From contig OZ244881.1 of NCBI GenBank assembly GCA_965221305.1, forward strand, positions 749,159 through 813,158: 64,000 nt of DNA, in the 5' to 3' direction. The first letter of the stretch is position 1; the number at the start of each line of letters is the position of its first letter. The notes under the pieces were generated by a model. It had not been told where the DNA came from and ran no database searches. It worked only from the letters and a program-made list of their open reading frames with translations. This document shows, in pieces, positions 21,645 through 34,210 of this stretch. The position numbers and the translations under genes were made by a program. The stretch comes from Vicinamibacterales bacterium (GTDB lineage Bacteria > Acidobacteriota > Vicinamibacteria > Vicinamibacterales > UBA8438).

Positions 21645-22598
21645 TCACCGGCGACCAAGAGTCGGGGCCCCAGAGCGGCGCGGACTGCTGGCGGGGTCGG
21701 TTGGCCGCCCGGCGGAGCCGAAGGTGACGATGGGCGGGCCAGGGCCGGCCGCGGTCGCCGCGGCCAGCCGATCGACAATCGTGTCGCCCCGGGCCCCGAC
21801 CTCGGATCGCCGGTAGTGCTCCGTCCCGAGCAGGCGCGGCGCGTCGCCCTCGTCGACGAGCCGCAGGGCGCAGTCGTCGAACTGGGTGCGGTGTCGGCGC
21901 AGCGCCCTCAGCTTCTGCACGGCGTGGTCTCGCGCGTGCAGGACCAGGGTCGGCGGCGGCGCCCCGGCGCCGAACGCGTCTGCGTCGGCCACGCCGAGGA
22001 TGGACCGCACGAACGGGCGCGCCAGCCCACGCGCCTCGCTCACGCGGGCGGCGTGGTCGACGACCGCACGCATCGCGCCGGGGGGGAGACTGACGTGGAA
22101 CAGCGCCGGCGCATCGCGGCCGAGGGCCCCCACCATCGCGGTGGTCCGTTCATGCACGGCCACGTGGTCCGGATGCCAGTACAGCCCGTCCGCGTCGAAC
22201 GTGACCACGACGTCCGGGGCGGTGAGCCGAATCTCGTTCAGGATGTCCGCATGGAGCCGGTCCGGGAGTATCCACGGCAGCATCCCGTCCTCATGGTCGA
22301 GCAGTCGCACGCGGCCGATGCCGAGCTCTCTCGCCGCGGCCCGCAGCTCGGCCGCGCGCACCTGCCGGAGCGCTCGTGTCCCCGGCGCGGGCCCGTCGCG
22401 GCCCGCGCGTCCATGCTCGCCGTGGGTCAGGCAGAGGAGCGAGACCCGCACCCCGATGGCCGCGCACCACGCCAGCAGCCCGCCGCAGGCGAGCGACTCG
22501 TCGTCCGGGTGGGCGAAGACCGCGAGCATCGACGGGCGGCCGTCGTCCGGCGCGGCGGTCGGAGCGACGTCGTCAGGCGGGCGTCGCGATCGTGTCAC
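21645..22598 (-). CDS. PIG-L/LmbE family N-acetyl-sugar deacetylase
   Basis: VFAHPDDE, LTHGEHG, YWHPDH and HRTQF; GTG at 22598 with a GGAGAAAGAGG RBS. Confidence 0.92.
   Translation of the reverse strand: MTRSRRPPDDVAPTAAPDDGRPSMLAVFAHPDDESLACGGLLAWCAAIGVRVSLLCLTHGEHGRAGRDGPAPGTRALRQVRAAELRAAARELGIGRVRLLDHEDGMLPWILPDRLHADILNEIRLTAPDVVVTFDADGLYWHPDHVAVHERTTAMVGALGRDAPALFHVSLPPGAMRAVVDHAARVSEARGLARPFVRSILGVADADAFGAGAPPPTLVLHARDHAVQKLRALRRHRTQFDDCALRLVDEGDAPRLLGTEHYRRSEVGARGDTIVDRLAAATAAGPGPPIVTFGSAGRPTDPASSPRRSGAPTLGRR
21667..21740 (+). repeat. Dispersed ~80-bp element copy inside the PIG-L 3' end
   Basis: GAGCGGCGCGGACT...GGAGCCGAAGGTGACGATGGGCGGGCC. Confidence 0.7.
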
Positions 22599-22614
22599 TG
22601 CCCTCTTTCTCCAT

Positions 22615-22825
22615 GCCTGGTCCTCCCGCGCGTGGGAGCGGGCTCCTCTAGGGGGGCGTCCTGTGGGTCGACGACGCCCGGTCCTCCCGCGCGTGGGAGC
22701 GGGGGTTCGGCTGCGTGTCCCAATCGAACGCTGACGGCCCGGTCCTCCCGCGCGTGGGAGCGGGTGCCAGCACCGAAGATACTGGCCCTGGGTCCGGGCC
22801 CGGTCCTCCCGCGCGTGGGAGCGGG
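22615..22825. CRISPR. Orphan CRISPR-like mini-array: 4 x 28-bp repeat GCCCGGTCCTCCCGCGCGTGGGAGCGGG with 3 unique 33-bp spacers
   Basis: Repeats at 22615, 22676, 22737 and 22798 (exact 61-bp period); one mismatch in the first copy; internal palindrome CTCCC..GGGAG; no cas genes in the window. Confidence 0.7.
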
Positions 22826-22884
22826 ACGGTGGGCGGAGGCCCAACGAGGGATTGTCGACCCCGTTCGCGCGACGAAGGCGGTCC

Positions 22885-24036
22885 TCAAGGCTGCTGCTTC
22901 CTGGCCAGCGGCCCCTCGCCCGCGAGACGGCGGTCCGCCGGTCGCGGGGGCCGGGGCGTGCGGGCGGCGGTCGTTCCCGGTTGCGGCCGATGCGCCGCCA
23001 TGATCCGCCGGTACGCGTCGATATGCGCGTCCACCATCCGCTCCGGTCGGAACCGATCGAGGGCGCGCGCCCGCACCTGCCGCCGGTCGAGGGCCAGCAC
23101 GTCGCCGAGACCGCGGGCCAGGGCGTCGAGCGAAGCATGGACGTGTCCGGTGCGACCCTCGTCGACGAGCTCCCGGACCGCGCCGCGGTCGAGGGCGGCC
23201 ACGGGGGTGCCGCACGTCATCGCCTCGATGAGCACGAGGCCGAACGACTCGGCCGCTTGCAGCGGGTAGAGCAGGGCCCGCGCTCTCTGCAGCAGCGCGA
23301 CCTTGGCCTCGAGGTCCGCTTCGCCGGCGTAGACCACGCGGTCACCGTCCACCAGTGGCGCCACCGCCGCCCGATAGTACTCGTTGTCGGCGGCGGCGAG
23401 GACCAGGCGGTGACCGGTGCGCCGAGCGACCTCGATGGCTTCGATCACGCCCTTCTCCGCGGTGAACCGCCCCAGAAAGAGCAGGTAGTCGTCGGGGTGC
23501 GCGCCGTAGTCGAACAGAGTCGGATCGACGGCGTGATGGATGGCGGCGGCGACGTCGAGGCCGGCCAGCGACCGCGCCTGGGCCTGGGACACGGCCACGA
23601 AGGGCGCCTCCGGATAGCGCGACCAGAGGGCGACCTCGGCCGCGGACGGCGCGTGGTGCACCGTCTGCACGACCGGCACGGGCGCGGTGCGGGTCCACGC
23701 GAGAGAGAGCGGGGCGTACTCGGCTTGGTAGTGGATCAGGTCGAACGCATCGGCGCGCTCGACCGCGGCGGCCAGGTTGAAGAGCTCGCACAGCTCCCAC
23801 GGCCACAGCTCGGTGTCGCGGTGGTAGCCGTCCTCGAACACCGCGTGCAGCCGGGCGGCGGTGGCCGACGAGGCGGTGGCGAACAGGGTGACGTCGTGGC
23901 CGCGGGCCGCAAGCCCGTCGGCGAGCATCGCGGTCACCGTCTCGACCGACCCGGACCGGGCCGGGGGAATGGACTGCGCCACCGGTCCGACGAGGGCGAT
24001 GCGCAAGGGGGGCGGCGTGACGGCGGCGGGGTTCAC
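22885..24036 (-). CDS. Glycosyltransferase family 4
   Basis: RIALVGP, LFLGRFTAEKG and ESFGLVLIEAMTCGTPV; GTGA overlap at 24033-24036. Confidence 0.92.
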   Translation of the reverse strand: MNPAAVTPPPLRIALVGPVAQSIPPARSGSVETVTAMLADGLAARGHDVTLFATASSATAARLHAVFEDGYHRDTELWPWELCELFNLAAAVERADAFDLIHYQAEYAPLSLAWTRTAPVPVVQTVHHAPSAAEVALWSRYPEAPFVAVSQAQARSLAGLDVAAAIHHAVDPTLFDYGAHPDDYLLFLGRFTAEKGVIEAIEVARRTGHRLVLAAADNEYYRAAVAPLVDGDRVVYAGEADLEAKVALLQRARALLYPLQAAESFGLVLIEAMTCGTPVAALDRGAVRELVDEGRTGHVHASLDALARGLGDVLALDRRQVRARALDRFRPERMVDAHIDAYRRIMAAHRPQPGTTAARTPRPPRPADRRLAGEGPLARKQQP

Positions 24037-25154
24037 GAGCCGGCCCTCTCGAGTAGCGGCGGCAGCACGCGCGATGCCTCGAAGTGCTCCCGGGCGACGC
24101 CCGCCGCGCCCCGGGCGTGCGCCGCGTAGTCGGCCTCGATCCGCGCGAGCCCGTCGACGGCCTCCTCCACCGTCGAAAACGCCAGCAGTCCGGACCCCGC
24201 GGGCACGTGGGCGCTCCAGCCGGTGTCCTGCACCAAGGCGGGCCGCCCCGCCGCGAGATAGCACTCGGTGCGGTCGCTGAACCAGCCCGAGCGGTGCGCC
24301 ACGTAGGCGTGCTTGGCCACCCCGAACTCCGCCTTGGAGCCCTGGATGAACGAGCGGTAGGCGTCCGCGGTGCGCGACACCGCCATCGCCGGCACCGGCC
24401 CCCAGCCGTGCTCGGCGAGCAGCCGGTCGGGTCCGTTCACCGCGAGGCCGAAGCGGCTCGGGGTGCGCCGCGGGAGATCGAGGAACCGCAGGAACTCGCG
24501 GTCCTTGTTGCCGTCGACATCCTCGAAGCTCTCGGTGCGCCACGTCATCACCGTCGTGAACCGGTTTCGCGCGGCCGGCGCCTCGGTGCGCCACAGCTCG
24601 GTGACCACCGGCTGCCAGGTCTTCTCCCAGTGGAACTCGCCGGTAGGAACATCGCAGTCGGGCGTTCCGATATTGGCCCCGAAGGTGAAGAGGTGGTCGA
24701 ACTCTCGGAAGAAGTCGACGTACCAGGGCACGCCCTTGGCGATCGCGAGCTGCGTGAAGACGGGGTCGGAGTCGATGAACACCCGCCGGGGGATGCGCGC
24801 GTACTCGTCGCGCCAGAACCACGTGCCGCCGGACAGGTTGATCATCAGATCCGCGCCGGCGCAGTACTCGCGCACCGCCTCCTTCGACAGGCCGTGGTAG
24901 GCGCCGTCGTAGTTGACGAAGCTCCAGTGGTCGCCGAGCCCGTGCGGCGCGAGCGTCTCGTGGATGTGTCGGGTGCCGTAGGCCGGGTCCAGCGAGACCG
25001 CGTCCTGGACCGGGTCGTAGACGCACTCGCCGGTGTCCTCGACGTAGCGGACGTCGTGGCCCAGCGCTCGCAGCCCGACCAGGTACATCAGCGAACACCA
25101 CGCCACGCCCCCGAACGGGTAGCGCCCGATGATGCCCGCGAACAGGATCCGCAT
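24033..25154 (-). CDS. Putative GT-B glycosyltransferase (uncharacterised family)
   Basis: GGVAW..YLVGLRALGHDV, FIDSDPVFTQ and SGWFSDRTECYLAAGRP. Confidence 0.8.
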   Translation of the reverse strand: MRILFAGIIGRYPFGGVAWCSLMYLVGLRALGHDVRYVEDTGECVYDPVQDAVSLDPAYGTRHIHETLAPHGLGDHWSFVNYDGAYHGLSKEAVREYCAGADLMINLSGGTWFWRDEYARIPRRVFIDSDPVFTQLAIAKGVPWYVDFFREFDHLFTFGANIGTPDCDVPTGEFHWEKTWQPVVTELWRTEAPAARNRFTTVMTWRTESFEDVDGNKDREFLRFLDLPRRTPSRFGLAVNGPDRLLAEHGWGPVPAMAVSRTADAYRSFIQGSKAEFGVAKHAYVAHRSGWFSDRTECYLAAGRPALVQDTGWSAHVPAGSGLLAFSTVEEAVDGLARIEADYAAHARGAAGVAREHFEASRVLPPLLERAGS

Positions 25155-34015: not shown

Positions 34016-34210
34016 CCGCGCCGCGGTCGACCGCCGCGGGACCCTTCGCGCGAATTCGAGCGCCCCGGAGAACGACACGTCTGCCTGGATCGCGCTGGAC
34101 CGCGCCGCGGTCGACCGCCGCGGGACCCTTCGCGCGAATTCGAGCGCCCCGGAGAACGACACGTCTGCCTGGACCGCGCCGCCGTCGACCGGCGCGGGAC
34201 CCTTCGCGCG
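34016..34210. repeat. Tandem repeat, ~2.5 units (84- and 74-bp periods)
   Basis: CCGCGCCGC(G/C)GTCGACC units at 34016, 34100 and 34174. Confidence 0.88.

Follow-up and report, generated by a model that had tools for sequence, protein, structure and literature searches.

A candidate natural neo-CRISPR array within a glycosyltransferase/PIG-L operon of a Vicinamibacterales bacterium

A small array and its place in the operon

The genome of the Vicinamibacterales bacterium described here (G000; 4.59 Mb, 71% G+C) contains a small CRISPR-like array, located between a GT4 glycosyltransferase gene and a PIG-L family deacetylase gene in a 64,000-nucleotide stretch of contig C1 (C1:749159-813158), to which we refer as the window. 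Four copies of a 28-nt repeat (GCCCGGTCCTCCCGCGCGTGGGAGCGGG on the plus strand) are present at window positions 22615-22825 with start-to-start spacings of 61, 61, and 61 nt, and all three units have the same 28 + 33 composition, with spacers that are mutually unrelated. We think it very probable that this array is a natural neo-CRISPR, generated by off-target Cas1-Cas2 integration by the CRISPR-Cas system of type I-E that is resident in the same genome. The components of the locus are as follows, in window coordinates.

21645..22598, minus strand: PIG-L family deacetylase gene, downstream in the operon (PF02585, E 1e-29); GTG start at 22598, then an AHPDDE motif
22599..22614, minus strand: 16 nt from the array to the PIG-L start, with an intact purine-rich ribosome-binding stretch (minus strand ATGGAGAAAGAGGGCA)
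22615..22642, minus strand: repeat 1, at the trailer end of the array if the inferred orientation holds; 1 mismatch
22643..22675, minus strand: spacer 1, 33 nt, the oldest of the three if the inferred orientation holds; resembles a conserved stretch of DUF4159 genes ('LLKGGFLWVDD')
22676..22703, minus strand: repeat 2, exact copy
22704..22736, minus strand: spacer 2, 33 nt; no source match
22737..22764, minus strand: repeat 3, exact copy
22765..22797, minus strand: spacer 3, 33 nt, the newest of the three if the inferred orientation holds; no source match
22798..22825, minus strand: repeat 4, exact copy; first, 'leader'-proximal in the inferred orientation (minus strand CCCGCTCCCACGCGCGGGAGGACCGGGC)
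22826..22884, minus strand: native intergenic DNA on the 'leader' side, from the GT4 stop to the array; aligns without gaps to relative G013
22885..25101, minus strand: GT4 glycosyltransferase gene, upstream in the operon (PF00534, E 4.6e-19, and PF13692); ends '...ARKQQP*', stop at 22885-22887

The original prediction, made from the sequence of the window, proposed that four repeats of 28 nt recur with a period of exactly 61 nt and enclose three 33-nt spacers of unrelated sequence, and both the coordinates and a shuffle test agree with this. A pattern search with the 28-mer allowing up to 3 mismatches returns the four matches in the array, and none of 100 dinucleotide-preserving shuffles contains any match. 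The bases immediately outside the 28-mer vary among the copies, from which it follows that the repeat is exactly 28 nt and the spacers exactly 33 nt. Tandem Repeats Finder does not report the array, which is expected because the spacers are unrelated. Copies 2–4 are identical, and copy 1 (22615-22642) has a single C to T change at position 4, such that the mutated copy is the last on the minus strand, as had been noted. The placement between the GT4 stop (22885) and the PIG-L start (22598) also holds, with the two genes assigned by PF00534 and PF02585 and their start and stop codons read directly, and repeat 1 lies 16 nt from the PIG-L GTG start.

Two features suggest a minus-strand orientation for the array. 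The repeat is identical to the canonical repeat of the resident type I-E system at 15 of 28 positions when read on the minus strand versus 13 of 28 on the plus strand, and the variant repeat lies at the opposite end, where no copying is expected in a polarised array. An AT-rich leader is lacking, in agreement with the prediction; the 40 nt upstream of the array are 33% A+T and are native intergenic DNA. No promoter-like or terminator-like sites were found at the array. Because it is in the sense orientation within the operon and the PIG-L ribosome-binding stretch is intact, the array is probably carried within the GT4 to PIG-L mRNA.

Resident CRISPR-Cas systems and the orthologous site in relatives

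The array had been described as lacking cas genes, and this is correct for the window, in which there is no cas1, cas6e, or cas7e across the 64 kb, but not for the genome, which has complete type I-E and type I-C loci. Profile searches gave Cas6e and Cas7e matches at C1:2.58 Mb and matches to Cas1 families at two places in the genome. The type I-E operon is intact and is on the same contig, 1.8 Mb from the focal array. Searching Pfam with one open reading frame (ORF) at a time, we find Cas3 (HD and helicase), an ORF at the Cse1 position (613 aa, without a Pfam hit), Cse2 (with a score of 23.9 bits, just below the cut-off), Cas7e, Cas5, Cas6e, Cas1, and a Cas2 of the I-E type. Array A directly follows the operon, and the canonical arrays A and B (C1:2587514-2589431 and 2592554-2599904, with 31 and 120 spacers, respectively) together contain 32 + 121 = 153 copies of the 28-nt repeat GGCTCCCCCGCACACGCGGGGATGGACC. 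Nearly all of the canonical spacers (148/151) are 33 nt long, and their first base is predominantly C (C 117, G 23, T 10, A 1; n = 151). The 153 repeats compare with 0–17 across 21 genomes of the same genus, and these arrays, by far the largest in the genus sample, fit with a very active adaptation module. Rfam CRISPR-DR gives no family for the focal array, nor does it for the canonical arrays, and it is therefore uninformative.

Variants of the canonical I-E repeat with 1–3 mismatches are present in 10 of 40 relatives (G006, G007, G008, G009, G011, G015, G019, G020, G021, and G050), mostly in 1–3 copies, with 17 in G015 and 8 in G011.

The second system is of type I-C and includes Cas3, Csd1, Cas7, Cas4, and Cas1, with a 33-nt repeat at a period of 65–72 nt. 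Its Cas1 is read in two frames (model positions 1-203 and 216-282), reflecting either a frameshift or an assembly error. The locus is as follows.

L042:1707-9960; C1:578463-581349 and 584445-584814: type I-C locus with 43 + 6 repeats of 33 nt

The focal repeat is not dispersed. A 24-nt core of the repeat matches the genome four times, all within the array, and searches of 60 relatives gave four single hits, each with 3 mismatches and at other loci, with the reversed control also giving four; multiple copies were seen in none of the 60. Across 185,579 species genomes, a 20-nt core is found as one singleton in an unrelated genome. These are the outcomes of a check proposed with the original prediction, that the 28-mer might be a scattered singleton such as a repetitive extragenic palindromic (REP) or bacterial interspersed mosaic element (BIME) repeat, and we reject such an element, with all 4/4 genome matches in the array and as many hits in relatives as in the reversed control.

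The two flanking genes are adjacent in all 21 genomes of the same genus, and the array interior is uncovered among the matches listed. We can thus dismiss a mini-array borne on a mobile element, as the flanks are syntenic in 21/21 of these genomes and the repeat differs from that of the host. The clearest comparison is with G013, where the match from the PIG-L side extends into repeat 1 and the match from the GT4 side extends into repeat 4, and the two overlap on the same ~22 nt of G013. When aligned pairwise, the two junctions fit a single G013 sequence with no gaps, such that the DNA at 22826..22884 adjoins a single repeat-like copy in G013, which by hand count is identical to the repeat at 19 of 28 positions. 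G019 and G004 have the same single-copy arrangement, although less clearly, and the closest relative, G008 (89% identity), retains 17 of the first 18 nt followed by a deletion. No more than one repeat copy is present in any of the 14 relatives in which the intergenic region was read. A single syntenic copy homologous to the repeat in relatives indicates that the array is an in-situ expansion of native DNA, in which the 28-mer was duplicated around three 33-bp inserts, adding 3 x 61 = 183 bp.

A relic or orphan array of some other I-E-like system, older or acquired, could also leave single repeats in relatives by decay while surviving here. The 28 + 33 geometry would suit any I-E system, and I-E repeats are patchy within the genus, with 9 of the 21 same-genus genomes having 1–17 copies. 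Moreover, the core of the single copy in G013 (minus strand CCCGCACTCGCGGGG) matches the canonical core at 14 of 15 positions by hand comparison when slid by 2 nt, and this canonical-like core is readable as an ancient solo repeat. Nonetheless, all 14 of the relatives that were read have at most one copy, and it has diverged about as much as the flanks, whereas the four copies here are identical except for one base, which fits recent duplication and not ancient retention. An array with the focal repeat is absent from the 185,579 species genomes, and the twelve other loci described below all differ in repeat sequence, so that they could not every one be the remnant of a separate system. We consider an origin as a relic to be highly improbable.

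Sister loci and a second class of duplication

The genome of G000 was scanned for 28-nt windows repeated (at least 26/28 identical) at a fixed offset with a non-repeated interval between them, with four canonical arrays excluded and other offsets serving as the control; the offset scan covered G000 alone. Nineteen events were found at an offset of 61, compared with 0–7 at every other offset from 50 to 70, and a cleaned table of offset by length has a cluster at offset 61 and lengths of 28–31. The offset-61 events correspond to 13 loci on contig C1 including the focal array, with a total of 34 repeats (2, 4, 2, 4, 2, 2, 2, 5, 2, 2, 2, 3, and 2 per locus) and 21 spacers, of which 19 are 33 nt, one 32 nt, and one 34 nt. 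Each locus has its own 28-nt repeat. The twelve sister mini-arrays, all on C1 and with 2–5 repeat copies each, are at the following positions.

L043:978-1066, sister mini-array, own 28-nt repeat
L044:1029-1117, sister mini-array, own 28-nt repeat
L045:1017-1226, sister mini-array, own 28-nt repeat
L046:977-1065, sister mini-array, own 28-nt repeat
L047:1002-1090, sister mini-array, own 28-nt repeat
L048:1016-1104, sister mini-array, own 28-nt repeat
L049:1024-1296, sister mini-array, own 28-nt repeat
L050:1000-1088, sister mini-array, own 28-nt repeat
L051:1031-1119, sister mini-array, own 28-nt repeat
L052:1006-1094, sister mini-array, own 28-nt repeat
L053:1005-1154, sister mini-array, own 28-nt repeat
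L054:1029-1117, sister mini-array, own 28-nt repeat

Spacers 1 and 3 of L045 are identical, indicating that part of this array was duplicated as a block. At locus n3877k the duplicated 28-mer begins around the stop codon of a conserved upstream gene; G015, G014, and G008 each have this region as a single copy, against three copies in G000. A single copy was not identifiable in five relatives at locus n2195k, where the intergenic DNA is too diverged.

Although each is different, the 13 repeats share features with the canonical I-E repeat. Compared in register and in the better orientation, they are identical to it at a mean of 15.0 of 28 positions (range 11–20), whereas 200,000 random genomic 28-mers average 9.8 (standard deviation 2.1), and none of 100,000 resamplings of 13 reaches the observed mean; reversing the canonical repeat gives 6.9. 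The shared positions are C7, C8, C9, G10, C15, C17, G20, and G21, each present in 10–12 of the 13 repeats, and they correspond to both arms of the canonical stem plus an alternating CG centre. No leader-like motif was seen upstream of the 13 neo-arrays.

Spacers at two of the sister loci have sources within the genome itself. The n244k spacer is identical at 33/33 positions to C1:2687491-2687523 (L068:992-1024), within an ankyrin-repeat gene, and this protospacer is preceded by AA and begins with G, thus having an AAG protospacer adjacent motif (PAM) in the orientation predicted from the repeat. AAG is the usual type I-E PAM, and its G is carried into the array. A second spacer, that of n1745k, matches C1:1013757 at 31/33 positions and does not have an AA|G-type flank.

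The same scan revealed a second class of duplication, with direct repeats of 35–41 nt (mode 37; at most 1 mismatch) that are 31–40 nt apart (mode 35) at offsets of 71–75. There are 32 such events, six of which are parts of longer tandem repeats, leaving 26. Examples are as follows.

L078:1018-1126, 37-bp class, on C1
L081:1002-1110, 37-bp class, on C1
C1:161515, 37-bp class
C1:362954, 37-bp class
C1:414660, 37-bp class
C1:1639659, 37-bp class
C1:2687656, 37-bp class
C1:3429295, 37-bp class
C1:4369126, 37-bp class

At both of the two loci tested, the flank matches of G013, G014, and G015 overlap by 21–39 nt, and the relatives therefore have one copy. The length of this class matches neither of the resident repeats (28 and 33 nt). 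We considered and rejected these duplications as products of the type I-C system: the I-C repeat is 33 nt, similarity to it in register is weak (13.2 vs 11.7), and two near-perfect self protospacers (34/36 and 34/35) have no TTC-like flank, nor any flank in common. Possible origins include a third system that has since been lost, or the I-C integrase acting away from its repeat with a different stagger.

The 37-bp class, with its ~35-bp inserts, does show that some unassigned process of duplication plus insertion operates in this genome, and this bears on whether the focal array has a non-CRISPR origin, such as replication slippage, tandem duplication with fast-evolving linkers, a REP/BIME-type element, or another repeat-spacer process. 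The genome is also rich in other short repeats, and the focal array has no leader, no adjacent cas genes, and two of three spacers without a known target. However, dissimilar spacers between identical repeats could not have arisen by duplication and later divergence, 3 does not divide the 61-nt period, and the 28-mer is not dispersed. The excess in the offset scan sits exactly at the geometry of the host I-E system, and the n244k spacer reproduces, without mismatch, part of a distant gene next to an AAG PAM. We accordingly give very little credence to a non-CRISPR origin, and the suggestion of a new non-CRISPR repeat-spacer system is not supported.

Two other short repeats were noted in the window. 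A stretch of ~44 nt by the PIG-L gene (21700-21745) has many copies with 86–96% identity in this genome and in genomes of the same genus, often in tandem with an 81–84-nt spacing (e.g. C1:482085/482252 and 2406014/2406097); it is dispersed and looks REP-like. At 34035-34200 (C1:783193-783358) the short word CGCGGGACCCT... is present three times at ~80-nt spacing, and was flagged by a crude array finder.

Spacer sources, array formation, and significance

Searches for focal-array protospacers in phages and plasmids gave 19 and 26 records with best E-values of 2 and 0.6, which is at chance level, and 24-mers of spacers 2 and 3 have no matches in viral contigs (0 each). Spacer 1 resembles DUF4159 genes (PF13709, E 4.4e-32), with 25–29 of 33 positions identical in nine relatives and in two paralogues of G000 itself. 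Read on the minus strand, it begins with 12 nt that match one of these paralogues (C1:2142861) perfectly, where the flank is AA and then G. A BLAST search of 401 genomes gave DUF4159 hits of up to 56 bits, whereas no hit elsewhere in the array exceeded 43 bits. We estimate from the tail of the distribution that a match such as this would arise by chance with a probability of ~0.01 to 0.1, and regard it as borderline. A 21-mer of spacer 1 is found at eight loci in metagenome contigs, in unrelated genes and with only 1–4 of the other 12 bases matching, and gives no source.

The similarity to DUF4159 genes is not confined to the spacer. The segment 22643-22703, comprising spacer 1 and the next repeat, resembles 'LLKGGFLWVDDFWGSRAWE' of DUF4159 genes in one frame, with the similarity running into the repeat core, and the DNA on the PAM side of the DUF4159 look-alike shares 16–19 of 28 positions with the adjacent repeat, including up to 16 consecutive positions in register. 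This adjacency could be a coincidence of two repeat-like CG-rich stretches, or a hint that prespacers come from near sites nicked by the integrase. It is a possibility that prespacers are generated beside integrase target sites; the n244k protospacer is 165 bp from the 37-bp duplication site at C1:2687656 (random P 0.004; post hoc), and the n1745k protospacer is 4.4 kb from locus n1018k (P 0.09; post hoc).

We propose the following series of events for the formation of the array. The resident I-E Cas1-Cas2 would have inserted a spacer into an ordinary GC-rich hairpin between the GT4 and PIG-L genes, a site presumably chosen because it resembles the I-E repeat. Staggered cuts 28 bp apart, with the spacing set by the integrase as it is at a genuine array, followed by gap repair, would then duplicate the native 28 bp on either side of the 33-bp insert. 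Two further integrations at the GT4-side copy would yield the four repeats and three spacers, with a gain of 183 bp. An ectopic neo-array was among the readings offered in the original prediction, and it is the one that the shared 28 + 33 geometry, the single-copy site in relatives, and the 12 sister loci favor. An intact I-E system is present and a sister locus has a PAM-flanked self protospacer; we infer Cas1-Cas2 as the enzyme, the order of insertion, and the minus-strand orientation and polarity.

Several observations weigh against this origin as a neo-CRISPR. The canonical-array spacers have no phage match, and two plasmid hits are to the repeats of other arrays, which yielded no PAM for the resident system; the canonical spacers begin mostly with C (117/151), while both of the AA-flanked cases begin with G. 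Spacers 2 and 3 of the focal array have no match above chance either in the genome itself (best 23/33) or among 401 genomes of the order, and the best match of spacer 1 in its own genome (27/33) is within the 22–27/33 range obtained by chance with canonical spacers (30 sampled of 151). An integration model does not predict that the repeat core and the DNA beside the DUF4159 look-alike would be identical over 16 nt. Shifting the register by 2 gives 14.1 and 13.6 matches to the canonical repeat versus 15.5 at register 0, with odd shifts giving ~10, and these near-equal values show that much of the canonical resemblance is a CG run in phase, and is partly compositional. The orientation call is a matter of 15 versus 13 matches for the focal array and is tied or nearly tied at 3 of the 13 loci, and with no leader-like motif at the site the polarity of three integrations lacks an explanation. 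Lastly, one genome per species was compared, and the sole sequencing run holding the full stretch, with a contig that covers it with 0 differences, is probably its own source; three metagenome runs cover the conserved part in PIG-L and some short pieces past 22950, but none of the array.

Whatever its origin, the array might now be a working part of the cell, either providing CRISPR RNAs (crRNAs) in trans to the I-E Cascade or being cut at its hairpins so as to uncouple GT4 and PIG-L expression. The array is sense-oriented in the operon, and, in line with the predicted minus-strand stem followed by 8 nt, each repeat is able to form a 5-bp stem with a 6-nt loop and then 8 nt (-13.4 kcal/mol; the change in repeat 1 weakens this to -9.4). 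In the canonical repeat RNA the stem has 6 bp and the loop 4 nt (-13.6 kcal/mol). Spacer 1, with its 12-nt perfect PAM-proximal match and AA|G flank, could direct such a crRNA to the cell's own DUF4159 gene. For the trans-acting and mRNA-processing readings, co-orientation with the operon is the sole positive sign. Compared with shuffled sequences, the focal hairpin has no excess stability (z -0.98; folds as good are reached by 25 of 200 shuffles), the same is true of a 301-nt transcript (z -0.61), and the absence of the array from all relatives examined gives no sign of selection. Cas6e cutting and the use of the products by Cascade are possible but unlikely, as the stem sequence, the loop (6 vs 4 nt), and the 8-nt 3′ tail are all unlike those of the canonical repeat. 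Overall, we regard a present function as quite unlikely.

The boldest reading would make this genome a fossil record of array birth, with 13 I-E neo-arrays, ~26 duplications generated by a second integrase, and a focal array that is already functional. Cas6e would then uncouple GT4 from PIG-L, and a crRNA with a perfect 12-nt seed and an AAG PAM would act on the DUF4159 gene of its own genome. We view this combination as improbable.

Off-target integration spawning new arrays has precedent in Escherichia coli, as stated with reference to Nivala 2018 in portions of 10.1101/148544 (sec. 16) and PMC7054753. When Cas1-Cas2 is overproduced, rare off-target integration was detected and can give rise to 'neo-CRISPR' arrays, according to 10.1101/148544, PMC7054753, and PMC6546382. 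The features held in common with the focal array, as far as these sources describe them, are a type I-E integrase, integration outside of an array, a native duplication of repeat length around an insert of spacer length, and possible growth. The E. coli examples come from overproducing cultures, whereas here the products have become fixed at 13 loci of a wild genome, where they reach up to 4 spacers; relatives retain the orthologous site in its empty state, and a self protospacer flanked by a PAM is present. Evidence for natural neo-CRISPRs is described as 'circumstantial', for two other species, in the relevant section of 10.1101/148544 (sec. 16), and the portion of PMC6698737 concerning a different Cas1-Cas2 reports that off-target sites used in vitro share features of the repeat.

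Isolated arrays are attributed in part of PMC13142298, citing Shmakov 2020, to three possible origins: mobile elements that transfer them, loss of cas genes, and off-target spacer acquisition. The focal array resembles these in being far from its own cas genes and in having off-target acquisition as one proposed origin. Most isolated arrays in that account retain the cas-adjacent repeat and often a leader, as in CR3 of Pseudomonas aeruginosa (PMC13142298), whereas the focal repeat is just 15/28 identical to the resident one and is derived from local DNA. Virus- or provirus-borne mini-arrays and solitary repeat units are likewise very small, with 1–3 spacers, and away from cas genes; however, in the sections of PMC8616872 that deal with them they have host-like repeats and are on mobile elements, in contrast to the local repeat and conserved chromosomal genes of the focal locus. 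With the canonical I-E arrays of its own genome the focal array shares a 28-nt repeat, 33-nt spacers, a repeat stem-loop, a G or C first spacer base, C7-G10, and G20-G21, but it differs in having a repeat with 15/28 identity, no AT-rich leader, no adjacent cas genes, and 3 spacers instead of 31 and 120, one of which looks self-derived. Full-text searching found no paper on natural neo-arrays at multiple loci, and Nivala 2018 and Shmakov 2020 may list comparable ones. What seems unusual is the combination of empty-site proof, three-spacer growth inside an operon, and a dozen sister loci in one genome.

The origin of CRISPR arrays and of their very diverse repeats is an open question, and this genome provides a rare natural view of array birth. 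The dozen independent sister events define what the integrase will accept, namely C7-G10, a central CG run, and G20-G21. Scars of this kind may lie within operons and may contain spacers derived from the cell's own DNA, which is relevant to genome annotation, where a small array whose repeat is unfamiliar is usually discarded as a false positive or regarded as an orphan system, and also to estimating the mutational cost of an active adaptation module.

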